The notes under the pieces were generated by a model, which saw nothing but the letters and a program-made list of their open reading frames with translations, made no database searches and was not told the DNA's origin. Below, in pieces: positions 2 through 57,955 of a stretch of DNA of 64,000 bases. Made by a program: the position numbers and the translations under genes. Source of the stretch: a virus. Its lineage: Duplodnaviria > Caudoviricetes. The stretch's first letter is position 1. The number at the start of each line of letters is the position of its first letter. The DNA lies in the IMG/VR virus record IMGVR_UViG_3300005076_000003, positions 17,911-81,910 of that record; one strand, written 5' to 3'.

Positions 2-3000
2 GCAAAAATAGTCGCTGAGAAAGAATACTCTCGATATATTGCTGGTAATAGTCTAGCAATGGAGATTGTTCAATCTAAGCAACAACAAGCCCGTATAGAT
101 TATCTTGCTTCCCTATCAATAGAGGAAGAGTTACAAGGTCGTATTAATGCTCTATTGAAGATAGGTGCTACATACGACCAAGCTAGAACTTTAGCTGAAA
201 GTAAGTTTGCGGATAATGCGGAAGGTCGCGCTGCTCTTGGGCAAATGATCACTAATACATTATTCACTCAAAACCAACAACTAGATGATATGATTAGCCA
301 ACAAGCAAGTATTAATGGTTATCTTGAAAAAGGTAAGACATTAGAACAGGCTACTATGGAAGTCACTAAAGCTCGTCTGCAAATGATTGCTGGTGGAAAG
401 CTGACAGAGGAACAGAAAACTCTAGCGGATGCTGTATTACAACAACAGTTGAAACTAAAAGCTCTTGAAAGAGAGAAAGAGTTGCTGACCAATCTTAATA
501 CGTTGGAAAAGCAAAAGAATGCATTCGTTGTCGCACAATCTAGTAGTTATTATAAGTTAGCTCAGAATATAGCAATTGCCAATAAGGTTGCAGCAAATAC
601 AGACATGACTACTGCTCAAGCTAGACGTTTAGTTGAAGCAGAAGAATTGTTAAACTTTGAGAAAGAGATGTCTTCTCTTAAAATGCAAACTTATATTCTA
701 ACTCTCAACGAAAGCGATGCTGTTAAACAATTACTAAGTAACTACACAACCTTAGACAGTGTACAAGTTGGACAATATGATAGGCAACAGAAGCTTCTTG
801 CAATTGCTAAAGAGTTGTCTGCGGAAGCTGAAAAGCAACGTAACAATCCTATTGGTGACTTTAGTAGCGTTGATTTTAATGTGTTTGGTGATTTTGGTAA
901 TCCGTTTGAAGCTGCGCTAAATGGTCTGAATGAGTTTGTGACTAAGACTCAGGAAAGTCGTGGTTTATTGGCTTCACTTGAGAAAGATATTACTGCTGCT
1001 AAACAAGCTGGGTTAGATGTTACGAACTTAGAGTTGGAAAAGGTACAGTTATTAACTAAACAGGAACAGGACAGAAGTAAGGCTGTTGATCAAGGAATTA
1101 CAAGCACTTTATCACTAACGAAGTCAATGTTTAACGAGGAAAGTAAGGGTTATAAAGTAATTAGTAAGTTAGAAAAAGCTTACCAAGCATCTAAAATCGC
1201 CTTTGCTCTTTGGGAAAAGAAAGACGCTATCGCCACCTTAGCTCTTGAGTTAAAAGGTATGTTAATGAATGCTGCAACTTTTGTCTCAACAACAGCAACT
1301 AAACTTGCTGCACAAATGGGATTCAACGTTGCGAAAGGTACTGAAGCTGTATTAACTCAAGGTGGTGGTGATCCATACACAGCGTTCCCTCGTATGGCTG
1401 CAATGGCTGCTGCTGTAGCTGCTTTAGGTATTGCTATTGGTAGTATCTCTGGTGGTAGTACAGGAAGCTTCACTGCTTCTAACTCTGGAACAGGAACAGT
1501 CTTTGGTGATTCAGAGGCTCAATCTACCAGCATTGCTAATTCGATTGAATTGTTATCTGAAAATAGTGACTTGATGCTCCCATTAACCACTTCAATGTTA
1601 CGTTCTTTAAGAAATATTGAAAGTAGTGTTGGAGGTGTTACAAACCTAATCCTTCGTCAAGCTACTGGTGGAAGTTTCAATGTTTCTAATGGGTTCACTC
1701 AGAATGCAATTGGTGGATTCCTTGAGAAAGCTGGTAATTCGTTCTTTGCAAGTATTGGTGACTTCTTAGGTGTCAACAAGATGCTTGGTGGTTTACTGGG
1801 AAGTTTGTTTGGTTCTAAAACATCTATACAAGGTCAAGGTTTATTTGGCGGGGCACAGAGTTTAGGTAACATCATGTCAGGAGGTTTTAATCTTCAAGAG
1901 TACATTGATGTTGAAACTAAGAAGAAGACGTTTGGTATCACAACATCTGTAAAGAATAGTACACAATTCTCCGCTGCTAATAAAGAGTTAGAGAAGCAGT
2001 TTACATTAATCTTCTCAGGGTTCTACGATTCAATTCTATCTGCTACAGATATTCTTGGTGCAAATACTAACGAAGTTAAGAACAAGTTACAAGCTGCCAT
2101 AATCAATATCGGTAAGATTGATTTGCAAGGTTTAAATGGTGAACAAATCCAAGAGAAGCTAGAAGCTGTTTTTGGTGCTGCTGCTGATAATCTTGCACAA
2201 CAAGGTTTTGCTGGTCTAGATGCTTTCCAGAAAGTTGGTGAAGGTTACTATGAAACTCTGATACGTGTAGCTTCTGCTGTTGATGAAGCAACATATTACA
2301 CAGAACGTTTAAATGTAACCGCTGTTGACTACACTGACATCTTGAATAAACAAGGTGATGTAGCTGCTGAGATTGTTCGTCAGTCTGTACTGTTAAACAA
2401 TAGTACAAAAGACATCAAAGGTGGCTTCTATGATTTAGTTAATTCTTTTGATGGTACAGCAAGTGAATTGACAGACTTTGTTCTGACACTGAAAGACTTA
2501 CAAGATCAGTTGTTTATGACTGGTAAGAATGCTGACTATTTAACATCATCAATGATTCTCGGTGCTGGTGGTTTAGACAGCCTAGCTAGTGGTTTAGATG
2601 CTTATTTTGAAATGTTATCTCCTGCTGAACAAGCTGCTGAGTTGACACGTAGATTGACAAATGAGTTTGCTATCTTTGGTAAGGAATTGCCAGCAGATGT
2701 CAAAGCATTTAGAAATTTAGTGAGCAGTATTGATATTAGCACAGAAGCTGGTCAAAAGCTTTATGGTCAAATCATTGCGTTAGCTCCTGAGTTCAACGAT
2801 CTTCAAGATGCTATTAAGAATGCGAATGGTGATGTGAATGCTCTTGTGCAATCTCTACGCGATTTAGCTGAACAAGCTAGAGCTGCTAGAGGTGAAACAG
2901 AACAACCACGTAACTTAGCTTACCTTCGTAATGAGTTCCAGAATGCTTCTGCTTTAGCTCTACAAGGCGATACGGAAGCTGCTGCTAGACTTATTACTAT

Positions 3001-3379
3001 CGGCAAAGACTTGATGTCTATGAGCAAGCTATACTCTGTAACAGGTAGTGATTATGCTAAAGACTTAGCCTTCATTCAAGGTATCGCAACTGTTGTAGCT
3101 GACATTCAAGAGTCTGGCTTAGGAACTTCAATTAGTCCTGATCTAACACCCTCTACTGGTACGGGAACAACTACACCAACTGTTGAGACAGTTAATAACT
3201 CAACAGATGCTCGTTTAGATGCGCTTTCTGAGAAGTTAGAAGCGGGGTTATTTGCTATTGCTAAGTATGCTCAAGTTACAGCAACTAAGTTAGAGAATTG
3301 GGATGATGGTAATCGTATCATGGTTGGTATTCAACCTGAGAATGGTGACATACCTGTTCCAGTTAAAATCACATTATAA
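2..3379 (+). CDS. Tail tape measure protein, C-terminal part (5' truncated by window edge)
   Basis: Frame is open from position 2 to the stop at 3379. More than 1100 aa of Ala/Gln/Leu-rich helical sequence with Gly-rich hydrophobic patches, directly upstream of tail and lysis genes. Confidence 0.85.
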   Translation, partial: AKIVAEKEYSRYIAGNSLAMEIVQSKQQQARIDYLASLSIEEELQGRINALLKIGATYDQARTLAESKFADNAEGRAALGQMITNTLFTQNQQLDDMISQQASINGYLEKGKTLEQATMEVTKARLQMIAGGKLTEEQKTLADAVLQQQLKLKALEREKELLTNLNTLEKQKNAFVVAQSSSYYKLAQNIAIANKVAANTDMTTAQARRLVEAEELLNFEKEMSSLKMQTYILTLNESDAVKQLLSNYTTLDSVQVGQYDRQQKLLAIAKELSAEAEKQRNNPIGDFSSVDFNVFGDFGNPFEAALNGLNEFVTKTQESRGLLASLEKDITAAKQAGLDVTNLELEKVQLLTKQEQDRSKAVDQGITSTLSLTKSMFNEESKGYKVISKLEKAYQASKIAFALWEKKDAIATLALELKGMLMNAATFVSTTATKLAAQMGFNVAKGTEAVLTQGGGDPYTAFPRMAAMAAAVAALGIAIGSISGGSTGSFTASNSGTGTVFGDSEAQSTSIANSIELLSENSDLMLPLTTSMLRSLRNIESSVGGVTNLILRQATGGSFNVSNGFTQNAIGGFLEKAGNSFFASIGDFLGVNKMLGGLLGSLFGSKTSIQGQGLFGGAQSLGNIMSGGFNLQEYIDVETKKKTFGITTSVKNSTQFSAANKELEKQFTLIFSGFYDSILSATDILGANTNEVKNKLQAAIINIGKIDLQGLNGEQIQEKLEAVFGAAADNLAQQGFAGLDAFQKVGEGYYETLIRVASAVDEATYYTERLNVTAVDYTDILNKQGDVAAEIVRQSVLLNNSTKDIKGGFYDLVNSFDGTASELTDFVLTLKDLQDQLFMTGKNADYLTSSMILGAGGLDSLASGLDAYFEMLSPAEQAAELTRRLTNEFAIFGKELPADVKAFRNLVSSIDISTEAGQKLYGQIIALAPEFNDLQDAIKNANGDVNALVQSLRDLAEQARAARGETEQPRNLAYLRNEFQNASALALQGDTEAAARLITIGKDLMSMSKLYSVTGSDYAKDLAFIQGIATVVADIQESGLGTSISPDLTPSTGTGTTTPTVETVNNSTDARLDALSEKLEAGLFAIAKYAQVTATKLENWDDGNRIMVGIQPENGDIPVPVKITL

Positions 3380-3449
3380 GTAGATGGAGAGTTTAGGCTC
3401 TCCTGATACTCTTTAACACACTAGAGCATTTTAATATTGAGGAAATTAG

Positions 3450-4346
3450 ATGAGAGTTATTAAAAGTATAGTGACTACGGACGCTATTCTAACTTCTAGT
3501 AACATCCCAGAGGATGAATACCCCGATTGGGTATCTGGTACAAGTTACACTGCTCTGGATAAAGTTATTTATGAACACAAGATTTATGAAAGGATTATAA
3601 CTGGTACTGGGACAACTCCTCCAAACATAGATCAAATTAATTGGTTAGATTTAGGTGCTACAAACAAATACAGAATGTTTGACAATATCATTTCAAGTGT
3701 TAGTAGTCGAGTTGGTGGCATTGAGTTTACTCTTACGCCGAATCAGGTTGTTAATGGAATTGCTCTTTTAAACGTAAACGCTTCACTGGTTAGGGTTGTT
3801 GTAACTGATCCGATTGATGGTGTTGTATATGATCAGACTAAAGAGTTAAGAGCTTCAAGTGAAGTTATTGATTACTTCTCATACTTCTTTGCCCCATTAG
3901 TATCTCTAACAGATTTAAATACAGCAGTATTCTTAGACTTACCAAACAGACCGACAGCAACTATTACAGTATATATTAGCTCAGGGACAGGTTTAGTAGA
4001 GGTTGGTGAAGTTGTGTATGGTATTCAGAGTGTGGTTGGTAGAACTAACTATGGCACAGCTATCGGGATTAAATCTTATTCTCGCAAGGAGGTAGATGAG
4101 TTTGGTAAAGTTACGGTAATTAAAAGAAAGAACAGTAAGTATGCTGATTATGATGTGGATATTGACAACACAAACTTAGCTTTTGTTCAAAGGTTGTTCC
4201 AAGATATCGATTCGATTCCGTGTGTATTTATTGGGAATCCTGAAATGGAAGAATTGATTGTCTATGGTTTCTATAGCGATTTCAAATCAACCATTAGTTT
4301 TCCAACAGTTAGTAAGTGTACGTTACGTGTAGAGGGGTTAATCTAA
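3450..4346 (+). CDS. Virion tail-tip (distal-tail-like) protein with N-terminal carbohydrate-binding-like W..G.Y...D.V.Y motif
   Basis: Immediately after the tape measure gene, GAGGA RBS, beta-rich composition. Confidence 0.55.
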   Translation: MRVIKSIVTTDAILTSSNIPEDEYPDWVSGTSYTALDKVIYEHKIYERIITGTGTTPPNIDQINWLDLGATNKYRMFDNIISSVSSRVGGIEFTLTPNQVVNGIALLNVNASLVRVVVTDPIDGVVYDQTKELRASSEVIDYFSYFFAPLVSLTDLNTAVFLDLPNRPTATITVYISSGTGLVEVGEVVYGIQSVVGRTNYGTAIGIKSYSRKEVDEFGKVTVIKRKNSKYADYDVDIDNTNLAFVQRLFQDIDSIPCVFIGNPEMEELIVYGFYSDFKSTISFPTVSKCTLRVEGLI

Positions 4347-34647: not shown

Positions 34648-35185
34648 AGATTCAGCTTTTGATGAAAAATACAGTATCGACACATTTGGAAATCTTGTGA
34701 ACTTAAAAACAGGGAAGTTCTTAAAGTTCAGAAAAGATAAAGACGGATACTTGGTTTGTAATTTACGTATAAACGGAAAGAGGGTTACAAGATTTCAACA
34801 TAGGTTATTAGCAATAAAATATCTAGCAAATCCTGAAAATAAAACGCAGGTTAACCATATAAATGGGATAAAACACGATAATAGCTTACACAATTTAGAG
34901 TGGTCAACGAGAAGTGAGAACATGCTACATTCAACACATGTTCTAGGTAATCCAAAACCCCCAAGTAATAAAGGTAATACTGGCGTAAAATCTCCTTTGA
35001 GTAGACATATTGTAGGTATAAGTGTTTTAGATGACACATGTTTAATTTTTGCAGGTCAAAAAGATGCTCAACGACAAACCAATTCGCATTTTAAACAAAG
35101 TAATATTTACACAAGCATAAAAACAGGCTGCTCACATAAAGGGTATATCTGGTCATTTTTAGAGGAAGTTGAAGATAATGTTTGA
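34628..35185 (+). mobile_element. HNH homing endonuclease (NUMOD4-HNH_3-NUMOD1 type)
   Basis: HRLLA..YL.NPENKTQVNHINGIKHDNSLHNLEWSTRSEN. Confidence 0.9.
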
Positions 35186-36830
35186 TTTTAACAAAGTAAA
35201 AGTAATTGGTGTAACACAACCAGTTGTAGATTTTATCCCAGATAGTGAAGGTGTTTTATCTTATGCTGCTCGTGTATCCTCACCAAGTAATCAAGAGAAT
35301 TTCGATACAGCAGGAAAGTTATTAGCTTATTGTGTAAAGCATAAACATTACTCTGTATTTGAAACGTGTTCCTTAACAATGGAGATTGAAACACCGCGAG
35401 ATATTGCACGACAAATCTTACGCCATCGAAGCTTCTCATTCCAAGAGTTTTGTGTAGCTGAAGGGACTAAAATTTCTACTATTGTTGGAGGCTCTACCAA
35501 GAAAGTAAAAATTGAAGATTTATATAAACGCTATAAATCAAACCAGTATTGGGATATGTCAGATAATATGGTTCGAGTATTTGATGAAAAAACAAGTACC
35601 TTAGTTCAAGCAAAGATTAAAGAAGTTTTCAAAACTGGTGTCAAACCTGTGTATAAAATGACATTAGATAATGGTCGAACTATCGAATCTACTCTTGAAC
35701 ACAAATTCTTAACTCAAGAAGGGTTTTCTGAACTTGGGGATATTGAAATTGGAGATTTTGTTGGGTGTAATGGTATTCCTGTGTGGCAAATGCAACAGTG
35801 GTTAGCTGAAGCTAAGTTTGAAGCTATTGAGAACGGAACTGGTTTACAAGGGATTGCCGATAAAGCTGGAACAAGTATACACACAATCCGTAAGTGGTTG
35901 AAGAAACACAACCTACAATTCACTAAGAAACAGGTTGCGGTGTATACTGAAGTTTGGAACAAAGGTTTAGATTCAGAAAAACAACCAATGTACGGCAAAC
36001 TTATTTCTGAAGAAACTCGTATGAAAATGCAGGATTCATCTAAGAAAGGTTCTAGCAGCGTACTATTTAAAGGTGGGAATCCTAGAAGCTTCGGGTTAGA
36101 GGTTAGAGATTATTGGTATAAACGGAAAAACAACCTGATTAAAACATTAGGCAGTGTTTGTGCCGTTTCAGGAAAGGAGTGTTCATTTGAAGAATTAGAG
36201 ATTGATCATATCAAACCTTTATCAAAGTTTCCTGAACTTGCTTACGAAGCTTCTAATATTCAGTTGTTGTGTAAAGAAGAACATCGTAAAAAGTCAGCAC
36301 TTGAATCTTCCAAACGCTTATTAACTGCTAGTTGGCATAAGGTTGTTTCTATTGAGTTTGTTGGTGATAAAGAAACTTATGATATGGAGATTGATCACGA
36401 TTCTCATAATTATGTTGCAAATGGGATTATCACACACAATAGTCAGCGATATGCTCAATCTACAGAGTTTATTAGACGTGAGTGCAGATTACAAGACACT
36501 AAGAACCGACAAAACAGTTTTGATTGTTTTGATGAAGATACAGCACACGTTTGGAAGGTTATGCAAGAAGAATTGCTAGAGGTTGCTGAAAAGAACTACC
36601 AACACGCTTTATCAATCGGTATCGCTAAAGAAGTTGCTCGAACTCTTTTACCTGAAGGTTTAACAATGAGTAAGATGTATATGCAAGGTTCTGTACGATC
36701 TTGGATTCACTTTATCCAAGTTAGAAATGATTACGGTATTGCCCAAAAGGAAGTGGTTGACGTTGCTCGTAAAGCTAAAGTTGAGTTATTAAAACACTTC
36801 CCTTGTTTAGAAGAAGTTTTAAATAAATAA
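35178..36830 (+). CDS. thyX: Flavin-dependent thymidylate synthase, intein-interrupted
   Basis: ARVS, HYSVFE, RQILRHRSFSFQEF-[intein]-SQRY, ARTLLP, GSVRSWIHF. Confidence 0.93.
   Translation: MFDFNKVKVIGVTQPVVDFIPDSEGVLSYAARVSSPSNQENFDTAGKLLAYCVKHKHYSVFETCSLTMEIETPRDIARQILRHRSFSFQEFCVAEGTKISTIVGGSTKKVKIEDLYKRYKSNQYWDMSDNMVRVFDEKTSTLVQAKIKEVFKTGVKPVYKMTLDNGRTIESTLEHKFLTQEGFSELGDIEIGDFVGCNGIPVWQMQQWLAEAKFEAIENGTGLQGIADKAGTSIHTIRKWLKKHNLQFTKKQVAVYTEVWNKGLDSEKQPMYGKLISEETRMKMQDSSKKGSSSVLFKGGNPRSFGLEVRDYWYKRKNNLIKTLGSVCAVSGKECSFEELEIDHIKPLSKFPELAYEASNIQLLCKEEHRKKSALESSKRLLTASWHKVVSIEFVGDKETYDMEIDHDSHNYVANGIITHNSQRYAQSTEFIRRECRLQDTKNRQNSFDCFDEDTAHVWKVMQEELLEVAEKNYQHALSIGIAKEVARTLLPEGLTMSKMYMQGSVRSWIHFIQVRNDYGIAQKEVVDVARKAKVELLKHFPCLEEVLNK
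35451..36440 (+). mobile_element. Intein (330 aa) in thyX carrying an HNH nuclease domain
   Basis: Starts CVAEGT; block B IESTLEHKFLT; ends TYDMEI...HNYVANGIITHN with +1 Ser. Internal CAVSG...EIDHIKPL...NIQLLCKEEH. Confidence 0.92.
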
Positions 36831-38860: not shown

Positions 38861-41695
38861 ATGCAATTAATTAAATTTCAAAACACCAAAGTTAATCGTA
38901 AAGCTTTAACTGAAGCTGGTTATAAAATATATGATCCACACGCAACATTTAATCGAAAATCATGGATTATCATTGGAGATGATGGTATGTTATATGGTGT
39001 TGAAAGAAGAAACTTTGTTGTTGTAACTGCTGAAGAATATTTGGAGAAATTAAATGAAACTACTAACTAAACAACAAGCATTAAAAGCTTATCTAACAGG
39101 TTATACAATTGTGTACAATGCAAATGGTAAGTTTAAACAAGTTAATCAGAATACACGATTAAATGCTTCAAACGAATATTATGTATTAGGGTGTTAAGGA
39201 GATTTAACATGAGTGATCAATACGATGATGGGTTTTACGATGGACAACAAGAGCGGCAAGCTAATATTGATAAGGCCTTATATTTAATTAAGAAGTTTAA
39301 ACAGAACACTTCAGATGATCAAAGGTTGTTCTTAAACGATTTGTTTAATAAAATAGAGGATGTATTAAAATGATTAAATTCAATATGAATAAGTATGTAT
39401 GGTTTGAACCAACAGAGTTAGGTTTGCAAGTATTTGTAGATTATTATAAAGAATTTTCTTTTGATCATAAATTAGAAGTTGTAAACGGTAAGGCTTGTTT
39501 GTAGTTTCATGAGTTTATTCAAATTTATGGCGACTATATTACGTCTTATATTTGTAAAGATAAAGAAGTCTTTAAAAGGTATGAAGTGTGGATTGATGAG
39601 GAGAAGTTGTTATGATTGATATGTATTGCCAAGAAGTTGGTGTTGGAGATAAGGTTTTAACTTGGGTTAAGGAGGGTAAAGGTATTGAACTTAAGCACGT
39701 TGTAATCACTAAAGTAAATCCTAAGACAATTGAGTTTACTTATGATTATGTACCAACAGCTAAATACTACTCACCAAGTACAAATGTAGCTAAACGTAAG
39801 AGTAATCAGATTATGCTGTTACCACCATTTTAAGGGGGATGAAAATATGATTAAAGATGTAGACGGTAATGACATTAAGTTGCCTTATGGAACAATTGAA
39901 TTAGACGTAGATCAAGGGGGTTGGTGTTCCAATTATCGCGTAGACATTACGTGGACAGTTGACTACCATCGTCCTGATTTAGATTTATATCGTTATGAGA
40001 CATGTTCTAGTTTAGAGGAAGCTTTAGATTGGTATAAGAAGCAAGATTTGAAGACAAAAGGTGCTTAATTACAAAAGGGATTGACTTTAGGGTTGATCCC
40101 TTTCTTATTTTGTATTACACTTAAATCATAAATTAAAGGAGATGGACTATGAAAGGTAATAAGAAAACATCGCGCTACTTCTCTTGGTTATTACGAAGCA
40201 AGAGAATTCAGAACGAGTTCAAGGACTGGTTAGTAGACTGTGGATATGATGTGTATGAAGGTAACGGTTTATCATTTAATGAAGTTATTAAATTTAAATA
40301 CAAGAAAACAGAGGGTGTGTTGTGGGTGACAGGTTACGCAAATCCTGTGTTTATTATGTTGATGAAGAAATTTAAGGAGAAATGAAATGACTAAAGAATA
40401 CAAATCAGAGCTTGGTAAACTATACCAATCTAAACGAGAAGAAGCTCCACTAAACAAGATTGTATTTGACATATATAAAATGTTTGAATACTATATCGAA
40501 GTAGGGGAAACATTACCTATTCAGATTTCAGCGAAAGAATATAAAACCCTCACATCAAGACAAATATTGTGGGTGGTTGATCAACTGAAACAAAGAGGTT
40601 GTGTTGTTGAATATGCGATTGAGAAACGTCCTAATGGGGATAATAATTTTGTCCTTACTGATTTAGTTTGAGGGGCGATTATGAATTTTATTTGTGATCA
40701 ATGCGGGAATATTACAGAAGAAGATACATCACAATGCAATTGTTGTGGTTCTTATTGGTTTAGTGATTTTAGTAAAAATGAAGTGGTTTGCTCTAAATGT
40801 GATGTGATTATTCAAGATGGTTGGTCTTGTAAATACTTTGATGGTGATATATACTGCTTACATTGTGATTATTAGTAGGGGTACTATGTTATGAAATTTA
40901 TTAGTTTATGGAATAATTACGAATTTGACTCAATAGATTGGAACAATAATTTAATTGCTCTGTATATTGAGAGTCAATACTGCGTATTTCGTTATACAGG
41001 TAACGTAGAGTTATTTAAAGATGGTAATGGTGCAGGAGAGAGTTGGGACGATTTCTCACATGATATTACTACAGAGTTGGTGCATGAGTTAAGTGACGAG
41101 AATATTATATTGTTAAACTTCCATGAAGAGTATGTTGTTGAGTGGATTGCAGAACAAATTTATTTAGACAAGGAGAAAGGTAATGAGTGATTATGAGAAC
41201 ATTAAAGTAGAAATTAACAAAGAGCAAACGCTTGAGGATATTGTTAATGTTTTAGAAAGTAAAGGTTATGGTGTTGTGAATCATTACTTGCGTAACCACA
41301 ACTTTATAGTTGCAACAGTCAACTACTGCGGAGCTTTGAATTTTGATTACTGGAGTGAAAATATTAAGTTAGTCACACTAGCAGGAATAAAGGAGATGAA
41401 AATGACTAAAAGTTTTGAACAAGTGCTAGACCAAGAGAAGAATGAGTTAACAGAAGCTTTAATTCTATTTGGTGAAGGGAAGCGTGTAAATAAAGCTTTA
41501 GCTGATTTAGAAATGAATCGTCCTGAGTTTTACAAGTTTTATGAAGCAGGCAAACAATCCAAACAAGCTGAGATTGATGACCTAAAGAAGCGTATTGATG
41601 ATGCTTTGGAGAAGTGCTATACAGGTATTAGGAAACAAGGCGGTGACTACTATTTAGAGTTGGTTGAAGGTATTCTAAAAGGGGATACCAAATAA
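38861..41695 (+). other. Cluster of small early hypothetical CDS (38861-39070, 39054-39197, 39209-39373, 39612-39833, 39847-40068, 40149-40385, 40387-40671, 40681-40875 Cys-rich, 40891-41190 acidic, 41183-41695)
   Basis: Consecutive same-strand ORFs, mostly with RBS. Confidence 0.6.
39370..39615 (+). pseudogene. Phage hypothetical gene interrupted by an in-frame TAG at 39502
   Basis: MIKFNMNKYVWFEPTELG...KACL*FHEFIQIYG...EEKLL. The downstream half is coupled (ATGA) to the next gene. Confidence 0.65.
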
Positions 41696-41931: not shown

Positions 41932-42708
41932 GTGAAAAGAGAAGAGCAATTAGCTTTGAAGAAAAGTGAATATGAGGGTAAGGTTTATCCAACAAAGAGT
42001 TATGGTGATATACTTGTGTTAGAGTATATCAACTATAGAGATGTTACCGTTAAATTTTTAAACACAGGAAACATCCGTAAAACAGCAACATCAGAAATAA
42101 GGAAAGGTGAGATCAGAGACAATGAAGCTTTTCCTGTATATGCAGTTGGTGTTATGGATATGCCTAACGAACTGAGAAGATGTCATCCTGTACCTAAAGA
42201 ATATAGCGTTTGGAATGGAATAAGACAGCGATGCTATAATGAGAATACTAGGGACAAACTTCCGTCATATAAAGACGTTGAGATGTCGGAGAATTTTAAA
42301 TTCTACTCTTATTTTAAAGAGTGGTGCAATCAACAGGTTGGATTTAACGAAGATGGTTGGCAATTAGATAAAGATATTCTTTCCAAAGGAGTTAAGCTTT
42401 ATTCTGAAGATACATGCTGTTTTGTTCCTGCTGAAATCAATTGTGCATTACCTAATAATAAGAAGGTTAGGGGAGCTTTCCCACAGGGAGTTATTTATAA
42501 TAGCACTAAGACACGTTATAGAGCTAGAATACAAAGAGGAGATAAGTGGGAATCGTTGGGTACTTATGATACACCTGAAGAAGCTTTCTATGCCTATAAA
42601 CCTGTTAAAGAAGCTCATATCAAATCTTTAGCAAACAAATGGAAAGATCAAATTGACCCTAAAGTTTATGACGCTTTAATGAATTGGACAGTTGAAATTA
42701 CAGATTGA
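41932..42708 (+). mobile_element. Free-standing HNH homing endonuclease gene
   Basis: WNGIRQRCY, LDKDIL, YSEDTCCFVP, VEITD end. Confidence 0.85.
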
Positions 42709-42731
42709 GAGCTTAGGCTCTCTTTTTATTT
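42707..42731 (+). terminator. Intrinsic terminator
   Basis: gagagc-ttag-gctctc followed by tttttattt. Confidence 0.8.
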
Positions 42732-43356
42732 ACCCATATTTAACTGTGAGTGCTTTTAGTATTGAGACCCTAAGTCCTTGATAAACATGACTAATGCCCA
42801 CTTTGGTTCGGACGCTTCGGTTACTGATTTTTTTGGCATTTGCTGTTTGACCTAGCGATTCTAAAAATTTTGTCACTTCATGCCAGACCTGTTTTTCCCC
42901 TAAAAGTTTTAGGTATCTGAATTTCGGTATAACTTCTTTCAATTTCAAATTCATTGGTACAAATAAAAAATATTTATCAATAATTAAAAATTTATAACTT
43001 GATTTAATTATAACTTTTAGTTATTAATGAATTGATTATTCATAACCTTAAATTCCTAGCTTGTATAAGCTTTACAGTTACAAAAAACTTTTAAAATAAA
43101 TTGACTTGAGTATGCTTATTAGTGTATTCGCATAGGCGCGTTTCCTTTATAGTGAAAAATGAGTTTTATAAGCTGCCAGCAGGTAACGCCACGTTTTAAG
43201 CCTTTCCTTATGCACTAATAATAAAACAAGCATTGAAAAAACACGGCACAACGTAAAAACATGCAAGGGATGCAAAAAACATTGTATTTTTAAAAGATAA
43301 TTTTATTTAATATTCAATTACTTATTAAAAACTTTATAATTAATTTAAAATAGGTG

Positions 43357-43385
43357 TTGACGCGGTTTTATAAATTTACTAATAT
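43357..43385 (+). promoter_or_regulatory. Sigma70-type promoter heading the pre-early-like block
   Basis: TTGACG-N17-TAATAT with AT-rich upstream element. Confidence 0.65.
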
Positions 43386-43434
43386 GACCACATCGGAAGC
43401 AATCAAGCTAAACGAACAAATAGGAAATAGTAAA

Positions 43435-43626
43435 ATGCGTTTTGAAGTGTCTTATCAATCTGAAGTTGCTCAACAAAACTTTGATGAAGCTAACACTGAA
43501 GTTGTGTATTGTTTTGAAAATAAAGCTCTAAAACAAGCTAAATTGCTAAAAGAAGCTGAACGTTTTGGTCGAGGCGTCTTGTTTGTTGTGAATGGTAAAG
43601 ATGTGCTAGAGCAAATTTGTTTTTAA
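43435..43626 (+). CDS. Hypothetical pre-early-like protein
   Basis: AGGA RBS; first ORF after the promoter. Confidence 0.6.
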   Translation: MRFEVSYQSEVAQQNFDEANTEVVYCFENKALKQAKLLKEAERFGRGVLFVVNGKDVLEQICF

Positions 43627-43709
43627 GTTTATATACAGTGCAATTTACAAGCTAGATTGCATTAATATATAAACACCGTGCAATAATGCACATTAAAAGG
43701 AAAATCACC

Positions 43710-44069
43710 ATGTCAAACTTTACTTTAAGCACTGTACTTGATTCTATTAAATCAGATGCTCAGGATGTTTTAAGCCGATTATCACAAGACGAAATCAACG
43801 AGCTAACGCCTAGTGATGTCTGTGACTTATTGGATGAGAATAGTTACTGTGCTCCTGAAGTTATTTACTATGCAGATGCGTGGGAAGTAGTAGCAGGATC
43901 GTCTTTTAATGAGTACAGTGCAGACTGCCTAGACTTTTCAGGATGTGAAAACTCTTTAGACTGCGTCATGCAAGAAGCCAATAGTTTAGTGAATGATGCT
44001 TATTATAGTGAACGTGAAGCGATTGCAGCCGACATTTTAGACGGTTTACAAAATGAGCCTCAAGACTAA
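43710..44069 (+). CDS. Ocr (T7 gp0.3)-like DNA mimic anti-restriction protein, putative
   Basis: 119 aa with about 26 D/E versus 3 K/R. MSNFTLSTVLD resembles Ocr MSNMTYNNVFD; VIYYADAWEVVA resembles Ocr PHYYADIFSVMA (Ocr sequence from memory). Confidence 0.65.
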   Translation: MSNFTLSTVLDSIKSDAQDVLSRLSQDEINELTPSDVCDLLDENSYCAPEVIYYADAWEVVAGSSFNEYSADCLDFSGCENSLDCVMQEANSLVNDAYYSEREAIAADILDGLQNEPQD

Positions 44070-44084: not shown

Positions 44085-46699
44085 ATGAAAAAGCTTAAAT
44101 ATACATATTGGAGAATATTGCAACAAAATGGCGGTTATGGTTGGGATGATGTAGAACATTTTGACTTACACGCATCTACACTAACAGAGCGTAAACTGGT
44201 TGCTTTAGAATACATTAAAAACATGCCTAACTGCTCATACCGTTGGGTAAGCCGTAGGGAATTAAGCAAATAAACATCAAACAATGTGCATTGTATTAAG
44301 GTATTTAAAATGAAAATATTAACTTATGTCGATTATAAAGAATCTAACGTGGATAATCAATTATATTTAGATGATGACCTAATTTGCAACGAATTAAGAA
44401 ATTGCAGGGCGTTTCTAGTTTGGTTAGATTTAGAATTGATCAGCCAAGAAACCGTTTGCGACTCTTTTTGTGGGGAAAGAACGATTTACAAATATAAGCG
44501 CAAATGATTTAGGGTTAAACAAGCGTGCATTGTATTAATAGAGATATGATGCACACAATTTAAAACGATTTATATAAGTTTATTTTCGTAAACTCAAATA
44601 AGTGAGCGTATAAAATGATCAATCAAAAGCAACTAGCGTTAGAATTGAATGAAATATATATAGAATACTACAATGACTTTTTAACAGTGGAAAGATTTGC
44701 ATCTTATAAAGGTTGGTCATTATGGTTCACTAAACAAGCGATTAATTCAGGCAGAAAGATTAATCATAATCAAAAGTTATTGAATGAATTGTATTCTAAA
44801 TAAAAGGCATAAGACAATGAAACATATTAACGAATTAAACTTGAAACATGCTTTTATAGTAAATGATAAGTTTATTGCAATAAAAGCAAATAAGCGAAAT
44901 GTTTTAAAAGTACGTTCAAAGTGTTTTAGTAATTACCCTTTGTTGTATGTGGTTTTGAACGGTACACGATACCAAATTAGTGATAAACAATTTGATTTTA
45001 AACATGGCATTATATAAGGAAAGTTAAAATGAGTTATTTAGAAATTATGCAAGCGTTAGAACAAGGTCAAAAAGTATATTGGATTAATTCAGCTTATAGG
45101 GTACTTTTAGAAAATGGCAAGTTATACGAAATTAATGTGTACAATGAATCAATGTGCAGCTTGCAAGAATCACAATATAAAGATTGTTTTATTAAAGGTA
45201 TTTAAACAATGCTAGTAGTCAATAGGTACGAAAATAGACAGACTGGAAAGGTAACAATACAAGCTCACGTTATAAAAGGCAAAAAGCTTATTAAATCCTA
45301 TGCACCATGCTGTTATAGTTTAATCGATATGATTGCACAAAATTATAGCTTTTATTTATTGTGTGATGTTGATTATTATTCTAAACTTAAAAAAGTTAAT
45401 ATTGTTAATGCATGAAAATGGAAGGCTTTTAAAATGAGAGTTAAACAATTTAAACACTTTAAACACGTTGGTAAAGTTTACTGCCTAAACATTGGGGATA
45501 GTTTTTATATAAAATGTGGAAGTATTTTAAAAGTTAAAAATAAAACTTTTGATTATATATTCACACTAAGCGATGGTAAAAACTATACACCAAATCAATT
45601 GTATAATTTAATCAAGTAATAAAGTTTTAAAAGATTTACTGTAATTAAACTTTTAAAGGTGAAATATGAAAAGCTTAAACAAGCAACAAATTATTGAACA
45701 ATACAACAAAGGCTACACAATTGTCTTGTTTACTTGTAAAGATACTCTTCTTTTAAAACTAGACTATACAAGCGGAAACACATTAAACGAAATCTTAAAT
45801 ACTGGTTTATATCGTCATAATCAAGTGACGCATGGGAGAATCTTGTGATGAACTTTAAACAATATAAAATCACATTGAAAGAACAAGCTTTACGTTTAGA
45901 CGATAAAGGTATGTTATTCTAATAAGAGGATTAAAAATGAAAAAAGGTTTTCGACTAAAAGACGGTAGTGTTTGGACTATTATCAGTTATGACACTACGG
46001 AAGAATACATTGATAAATGTGACAGGGATGTATTCCCAAGTAACGTGTTAGAAGTAACAGGCGTTAAGTGGGAGAAAGGCTACGATCAAACACATCCATA
46101 TAATGCTAACTTCTCAGATTGTTTCTTTGATCATTTCAAAGTAGATGATGAACGTATAGACATTATTGTAGCAGACGTATTTGATTTAATTAATTGGGAC
46201 TAAAGATATGAATGCTAAACAGTTACAACGCATAAAACGTATAAAACAGCGTGCTTTATATGAATCGAAAGACTTACTATCCACTAAATTATTCAGCACA
46301 AAGAAGCATAGCTACACATTAGGCGATATGATAACGCTATTCAGCTTTATGATCCTACTATGTGCTTTTGTTTATATCAGTTTGATAATAGGTATTAAAT
46401 AATGAAAAAATAGTTTACACTTTCTTTTTAATTAATGTATAATCATCTTATACCGCCTAGCAAGGCAATTACTAAACAAGGGTAACAAAATGAAAACTCT
46501 AGTATTAAACGTAAACGGTAAAGATGTTTTATTCAGTACGAAAGATTGTACGTCTTCAGCAGACTTTTATTTTAAAGCTTATGATCTTGTATATAAGGCT
46601 TTTAATACAAGTAAGGAGCAATGCGAAATTGATCATGATTTATTTATGAGTACATTGTCAGTTATGAATAGTATATTAGACCATTTTTTAAGTAATTAA
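44085..46699 (+). other. Pre-early-like cluster of small CDS (44085-44273, 44310-44507, 44615-44803, 44817-45017, 45029-45205, 45209-45415, 45434-45619, 45666-45848, 45937-46203, 46208-46402, 46490-46699)
   Basis: Dense 58-88 aa same-strand ORFs with RBS, ending at a strong terminator. Confidence 0.6.
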
Positions 46700-46717: not shown

Positions 46718-46739
46718 GCCCCTTAACTGGGGCTTTTTT
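46718..46739 (+). terminator. Intrinsic terminator
   Basis: gcccc-ttaact-ggggc followed by tttttt. Confidence 0.85.
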
Positions 46740-56969: not shown

Positions 56970-57955
56970 TCAATACTTCTTAATACGAATACCTGATAAT
57001 TGGAACTCATCGTCAGATACTCTTGTATAAAAGTTACTTGCTGAACTAACCCCACTATCTAGGACTGTTTTAAAATATGCAAATTCGCTGTTAGGTAAAC
57101 AAACAATTAAATCATCTTTATCTTTACCTAATTTAGTCAATGCTCCGTTTATTGACATAAGACCATCTTTTAATTTCTTGAAAGCTTCTAGTTCTTTAGT
57201 GTCCATTTTAAACTCCTAAATTCCTTGTTTAAACTTACCATTTTCAATAAACCAAACTTCTTCTGTACCCCATTCTCCCTCGTGTAAACCTGTTTTCAGC
57301 AAATCTAATACGAATACTACATCTACGTCATCCTCGTCTTCAGATAGTACTTCCAATTCTATGAGGCTGTAAGCAATTCCAATCCGATCTTCTACAAAAG
57401 ATTCGATACTATCGTAGATCTCAGTTTCTAATCCGTTATCATCGAAATCAGCATTAATATATAAAAGTTGCATAACATATCTCCTTAAATAATAACTTTC
57501 TTAATCTTTCGTATTTTACCACACTTTCTACATACTTCATACCACTCGTCTGTCAGAATACAGCTCTCACATTCCCAGCGATGAGGTATACAGAATAACC
57601 TTCGTAGTAGTTTTAACATAACTTAATCCTCTCATAAATTATAAGTTAACAACATCTGTGTTCCTTGATCAGATAAAGCAGACTCTTTGTATAAATCATA
57701 CAAGCATCGTACATCATCTGAATCCCAACTACGTTCTCTACGAGCTTCATTTGAACATAAAGAGATTTCTCTCATTTCTTCGAGTAATTCTTTTTCAGAT
57801 ACTCCATAAATTTCTTGCGTACTTCCGTATTTTAAGAAGTTCTCCAATAAATCTTCTTTAGACTTAGAGATATAGACGCCATCATCGTCAATGTCAAATA
57901 TTTTATACCCGTTTACTTGTAAATTACAAGGTTTACCGTTATTTAAACAACTCAT
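56970..57955 (-). other. Four hypothetical CDS (56970-57206, 57216-57473 very acidic, 57485-57619 Zn-ribbon, 57632-57955)
   Basis: AGGAG RBS before each start. Confidence 0.6.

Follow-up and report, generated by a model that had tools for sequence, protein, structure and literature searches.

[quoted passage not shown] It is a homodimer that imitates a bent 24-bp DNA, and it is active only when each monomer has approximately 16 acidic residues and when both the fold and the dimer interface are preserved, the acidic residues of loop 2 being especially important (PMC4872106, PMC3439906). The literature that we could reach treats Ocr as a protein of the T7 group whose known homologues are all close, and its origin is discussed as an unsettled matter (PMC3439906, section 'How did Ocr evolve?'). 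Mobile elements carry additional acidic DNA-mimic anti-restriction proteins that are produced early after DNA entry, in particular ArdA (Tn916 Orf18; PF07275) and T4 Arn, which have been described as non-homologous to Ocr (PMC12707154). The small acidic phage protein that we describe here resembles ArdA and Arn as a putative functional analogue, whereas its resemblance to T7 Ocr (gp0.3; PF08684; PDB 1S7Z) extends to the predicted fold and to short sequence motifs.

The window that we analysed, a stretch of 64,000 nucleotides with a G+C content of 34%, corresponds to bases 17911-81910 of an 81.9-kb IMG/VR record (IMGVR_UViG_3300005076_000003) rated as complete by CheckV. The source is an uncultured relative of Acinetobacter phage TaPaz. 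When DNA polymerases are compared (64-68% identity), the closest isolates are Acinetobacter phages Ab5, Ab7, MD-2021a, and Phab24 and Edwardsiella phage ET-ABTNL-9, and the myovirus TaPaz is also among them; TaPaz encodes the closest isolate homologue of the protein under study (66% identity). The tail sheath families PF04984 and PF17482 gave no match in the record. The GenBank record of TaPaz (MZ043613.1) is linearised through its homologue of the gene, which for that reason is split over the two ends of the record (93405-93701 plus the record start) and carries no annotation. The window encodes a replisome, a ribonucleotide reductase, a tape-measure protein, and a thymidylate synthase (35169-36830, + strand; ThyX-type, PHROG 85) whose frame is broken at residues ~174-453 by an HNH endonuclease module, consistent with an intein.

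The gene of interest (43710-44069, + strand, stop codon included) encodes a protein of 119 aa with a predicted Ocr-like fold. It is a real and conserved gene, with 426 close homologues in metagenomes whose length is near-identical to that of our protein. The ATG at 43710 most probably is the real start, because the homologues open with MSNFTL and a ribosome-binding site, AAGGA (43697-43701, + strand), can be read directly in the sequence 8 nt upstream; use of another ATG located at 43686 is unlikely. The protein contains 26 Asp or Glu residues for only three Lys or Arg, no His, and five Cys (C38, C47, C73, C79, and C85), which give a net charge of -23.5 and a pI of 4.05. Among the 127 ATG-started ORFs of at least 60 aa in the window, it ranks within the top two for acidity per residue. 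These counts agree with an earlier note on this DNA, made from the sequence alone, which had reported 119 aa with about 26 acidic and three basic residues, several Cys, and a length similar to that of Ocr (117 aa in T7 gp0.3). Like T7 Ocr, the protein is thus strongly acidic with few basic residues, although Ocr contains 34 acidic residues and no Cys, and the poly-Glu/Asp C-terminal tail of Ocr is absent here.

A match at E 1e-15 between residues 4-113 and positions 6-120 of a 189-position profile places the protein in PHROG 22351, an unannotated family whose profile corresponds to a long form. Clustered at 50%, the family comprises 46 representatives, and a search with its profile retrieved 752 proteins, none of them with a functional name; one 1847-aa protein from the representative search was an Asp/Gly-rich repeat protein and was dropped as compositional. 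PHROG 22351 is represented in TaPaz-like phages of Acinetobacter, in Casjensviridae (Kokobel1 and Proteus phages), and in Ounavirinae (Hafnia phages), where its members are always annotated as hypothetical and placed among small genes. All these phages lie outside the Autographiviridae, in contrast with T7, and any anti-restriction role of the family is predicted. Approximately three quarters of the diverse members are 175-200 aa long and possess an additional C-terminal beta domain with a G-x3-H-x2-E motif (near-invariant Gly, His, and Glu) and a Cys, whereas the window protein is a short form devoid of this domain. In a relative of 198 aa (51% identical), residues ~120-185 are confidently predicted to form a packed beta sheet following helix D; this domain has no clear structural match, the best being the YjoB N-domain (Z 4.2), with weak similarities to pilin-like sheets. 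A comparable architecture is found in the long Ocr proteins of K1F-like phages (K1F gp0.3, 169 aa), such that both families include a short Ocr-like core and longer forms with a folded C-terminal addition. However, the added domains are without detectable relation, since hhalign of K1F gp0.3 against our long forms recovered only the helix-C motif (probability 0.4%), and the domain added in PHROG 22351 is a predicted beta sheet. We found no publication on this family or on Ocr relatives beyond the T7 group; subscription journals were mostly outside our search, so that an earlier description is possible.

The gene lies in a block of small + strand genes that spans from ~43354 to a terminator-like GC hairpin followed by a T-run (46718-46733, + strand). 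The preceding unit ends with an HNH endonuclease gene (41932-42708) and a terminator-like hairpin (42707-42722, + strand), which an AT-rich gap separates from the first ORF of the block (43354-43626, + strand), an orphan of 90 aa from a GTG codon, with a shorter ATG start possible and no family match. Our gene is the second ORF, so that, of the position at the start of a pre-early-like block proposed in the earlier note, the small-gene block holds and the first place does not. The next gene (44085-44273, + strand; 62 aa, no family match) begins 16 nt past the stop codon and is therefore probably co-transcribed with it. About 12 small + strand ORFs follow our gene up to the closing hairpin, and the neighbours within the block match no PHROG or only PHROGs of unknown function. 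A megablast search of the phage collection with the surrounding 8 kb gave no match. In two relatives of 96 and 91 kb, the homologue likewise occupies second place in a series of small genes on the same strand, downstream of a long gene-free stretch, and the position in the putative early block is therefore conserved. In the 96-kb relative, the block with the homologue is immediately preceded by ~2.3 kb without called genes (1465-3754).

Immediately upstream of our gene, inspection by eye revealed a sequence (43644-43673, + strand; TTTACA, 18 nt, TATAAA, or alternatively 16 nt, TATATA) that might tentatively be read as a sigma-70-type promoter. It is absent from the automated promoter list because the rule applied demands a T at position 6 of the -10 element. 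Several short repeats surround this site: the heptamer GTGCAAT occurs on either side of it (43638-43644 and 43678-43684), inverted arms TGCAAT/ATTGCA are found at 43639-43644 and 43656-43661, and the leader contains a potential hairpin, GTGCA-ATAA-TGCAC (43678-43691), that overlaps the unused ATG at 43686. These elements (43638-43691) may constitute an operator or a leader structure and are short enough to have arisen by chance; a search of the rest of the window for the inverted-repeat motif gave results at chance level.

An AlphaFold2 model of the 119-aa protein based on a 40-sequence alignment (pLDDT 94.4, pTM 0.83) contains helices at residues 6-21, 26-31, 34-43, 54-62, and 82-114, the last two of which are separated by a long loop (63-81). 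The elements thus follow each other in the order helix A, helix B, helix C, long loop, and long helix D, as in T7 Ocr, and the predicted monomer can be superposed on 1S7Z along most of its length. Comparison with the Ocr structure had been set beforehand as a refutation test for the earlier note; run at the level of the monomer, it gave Ocr as the top structural match. In a VIA search of the model against 48,161 PDB cluster representatives, T7 Ocr (1s7z_A) ranked first with Z 7.5 and an rmsd of 2.9 Å over 102 of its 106 residues (18% identity), bearing in mind the caveat of the search tool that Z values below 8 can arise from common helical arrangements. The runner-up reached Z 5.4 with just 60 aligned residues. 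Foldseek also placed six Ocr chains at the top (TM 0.40-0.52, probability at most 0.72, E 0.5-4), followed by matches with TM ~0.2. When all six Ocr chains were re-aligned with the model, they gave Z 7.0-7.9 over 95-105 residues, with residue 1 of the model on residue 3 of Ocr, and identities in the structural alignments ranged from 16 to 21%. The 198-aa relative, modelled from a different alignment (pLDDT 93.3), behaved similarly: Ocr was the only PDB chain at Z 5 or above (Z 5.6, 96 of 106 residues), and only Ocr chains obtained a Foldseek probability of 0.35-0.60. Among the viral models of BFVD, gp0.3 proteins of the T7 group were found among the top matches, the best match being an unnamed protein of 176 aa that probably is a long form of PHROG 22351. 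A feature search in the ESM Atlas gave no usable match. ArdA and Arn were absent from the fold-search lists obtained with the 119-aa model, which does not imply their formal exclusion.

At the sequence level, the similarity escapes direct searches. Pfam scans of the protein at E up to 10 gave no match, PF08684 (Ocr) and PF07275 (ArdA) included, nothing meaningful was found in nine relatives (again no match to PF07275), and across all 81.9 kb of the record the PF08684 HMM retrieved nothing with the same E limit of 10. The protein therefore falls outside PF08684 as delimited by Pfam (gathering score 25 bits). BLASTP against T7 gp0.3 was not significant, and querying the PDB by sequence, either with the protein or with the profile of its family, returned only chance-level matches. 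An HMM built from 20 Ocr sequences ranked the 119-aa ORF first among the 314 ORFs of the window, weakly (7.2 bits, E 0.083). Comparison of the alignment of our family (40 sequences) with that of the Ocr family (20 PF08684 proteins) by hhalign gave a probability of 73%, for a usual bar of 90-95%, with E 3.1e-5, and covered only residues 1-66 on Ocr 3-62; profile similarity to Ocr over the C-terminal half was not significant. This comparison pairs MSNFTLSTVLD with MSNMTYNNVFD of Ocr, and YYADAWEVVAGS with YYADIFSVMASE. It thereby aligns the two motifs that the earlier note had likened to Ocr (MSN.T...V.D and YYAD...V.A), which correspond to residues 1-11 and 53-62 of our protein and to MSNMTYNNVFD and YYADIFSVMA in Ocr, and chance does not account for the match.

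Our preferred reading, to which we give a probability of roughly 60%, is that the protein is a remote relative of T7 Ocr, small, all-helical, and with a strongly negative surface, and that it has, by analogy, an Ocr-like anti-restriction function. Its charge would be appropriate, as its 26 acidic residues, counted from composition, exceed the ~16 per monomer that Ocr needs. Four of them (E68, D72, D75, and E80) lie in the predicted loop 2, which is ~19 residues long here and differs in this respect from that of T7 Ocr. Acidic positions conserved across the family include D42, E50, D56, E59, D75, and E89, and the N-domains have medians of 25 acidic and six basic residues, compared to 30 and six in the Ocr family. 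Helix C is the most conserved segment common to both families. From work on interface mutants, F53 and A57 of helix C reportedly lie in the dimer interface of Ocr, and their aligned equivalents in our protein are W58 (80% conserved) and A62. The abundance of acidic residues, their conservation, and that of helix C together suggest a putative Ocr-like dimeric DNA mimic that would be produced early. In such a scheme, the gene would be transcribed by the host RNA polymerase from the promoter-like site just upstream, and its product would dimerise via the helix-C motif YYADAWEVVA (equivalent to YYADIFSVMA of Ocr). The dimer would mimic bent B-form DNA and fill the DNA-binding cleft of the methyltransferase core of the host type I restriction-modification enzyme, possibly also that of the BREX methyltransferase PglX, so that incoming unmodified phage DNA would be neither cut nor excluded.

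A second possibility, which we consider unlikely, is that the protein is a true relative with the Ocr fold that acts as an acidic decoy for another DNA-binding protein or defence of the host and confers no protection against type I restriction-modification or BREX. RNA polymerase, H-NS-type nucleoid proteins, DISARM- or Panchino-type methyltransferases, and RecBCD-like nucleases would all be candidate targets. This reading draws on the fold and profile results just as the anti-restriction one does, and several family traits depart from Ocr. C79 (90% conserved) and C85 (80%), located where loop 2 meets helix D, form a pair without counterpart in the Ocr family, and F76 and E89, also within the 80-100% range, differ from Ocr as well. 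The earlier note, too, had raised a possibly different specificity, pointing to the Cys residues. The C-terminal beta domain of most members, with its G-x3-H-x2-E motif and Cys, is a further such trait and hints at a function not identical to that of Ocr. Moreover, Ocr itself also binds RNA polymerase (PDB 6r9b) and the PARIS protein AriA (PDB 8v45), and DNA mimicry alone is no guarantee of anti-restriction (review PMC12707154). Against this, the DNA mimics known from phages and plasmids most commonly target type I restriction-modification, the short form has the size of Ocr and a similar charge, and the locus gives no hint of a different target. A related and equally doubtful proposal is that PHROG 22351 forms a separate Ocr-fold branch, older than that of T7 or parallel to it, which has spread through unrelated phage groups and whose Cys pair and C-terminal domain would reflect targets or a mode of action other than those of T7 Ocr; it might, for example, inhibit defences beyond type I restriction-modification and BREX, or evade Ocr-sensing systems such as PARIS.

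The least probable explanation is that the resemblance to Ocr stems from a generic helical arrangement and from composition, in which case the protein would be an acidic early protein without kinship to Ocr that contributes to host takeover in another way: taken one by one, Z values of 7-8 and Foldseek E values above 0.1 are weak, neither Pfam nor BLASTP detects the similarity, and the C-terminal half lacks a significant profile alignment, but Ocr ranks first out of 48,161 for two separately modelled members, over nearly its full length and with a clear gap to the second rank, the structural and profile alignments of the family with Ocr have an identical register, and the profile score lies above those of all 250 composition-preserving shuffles. 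Specifically, hhalign gave a score of 30.4, compared to a mean of 11.1 and a maximum of 22.9 for 150 column-shuffled Ocr alignments, a maximum of 17.9 for 100 shuffled alignments of our family, and 11.9 for the reversed profile; because none of the shuffles reaches 30.4, the match goes beyond composition. Returning to the preferred reading, the lines of evidence that are weak individually agree on one protein, named in advance, among tens of thousands, and a fold and an ancestry shared with Ocr are for that reason very probable, as far as models and profiles can tell. The divergent Ocr-like protein proposed in the earlier note has gained support from two independent search methods, two independently modelled members, and the profile link. 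We would accordingly describe it as part of a sequence-divergent branch with a predicted Ocr fold, outside PF08684 as delimited, whose function is assigned by analogy.

A well-conserved family with a predicted Ocr fold beyond the reach of Pfam, carried by phages that infect Acinetobacter, Proteus, Providencia, and Hafnia, would broaden the known range of this anti-defence fold and serve as a remote reference for establishing which properties of the mimic are indispensable. If it does constitute a separate branch, it could serve as an outgroup for studying how Ocr evolved. It would also offer candidate anti-restriction tools for hosts such as Acinetobacter, where restriction limits genetics and the choice of therapeutic phages, and ~750 phage proteins currently labelled as hypothetical may become annotatable.

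Two other acidic ORFs were observed in the window. One of them (40891-41190, + strand), an orphan of 99 aa with 21 Asp or Glu and five Lys or Arg residues and without PHROG match, lies upstream of the Ocr-like gene in the same orientation. The other (57219-57473, - strand; 85 aa, no PHROG match) is the most acidic ORF per residue in the window, with 23 Asp or Glu and four Lys or Arg residues, and is a candidate for another DNA-mimic or decoy protein.
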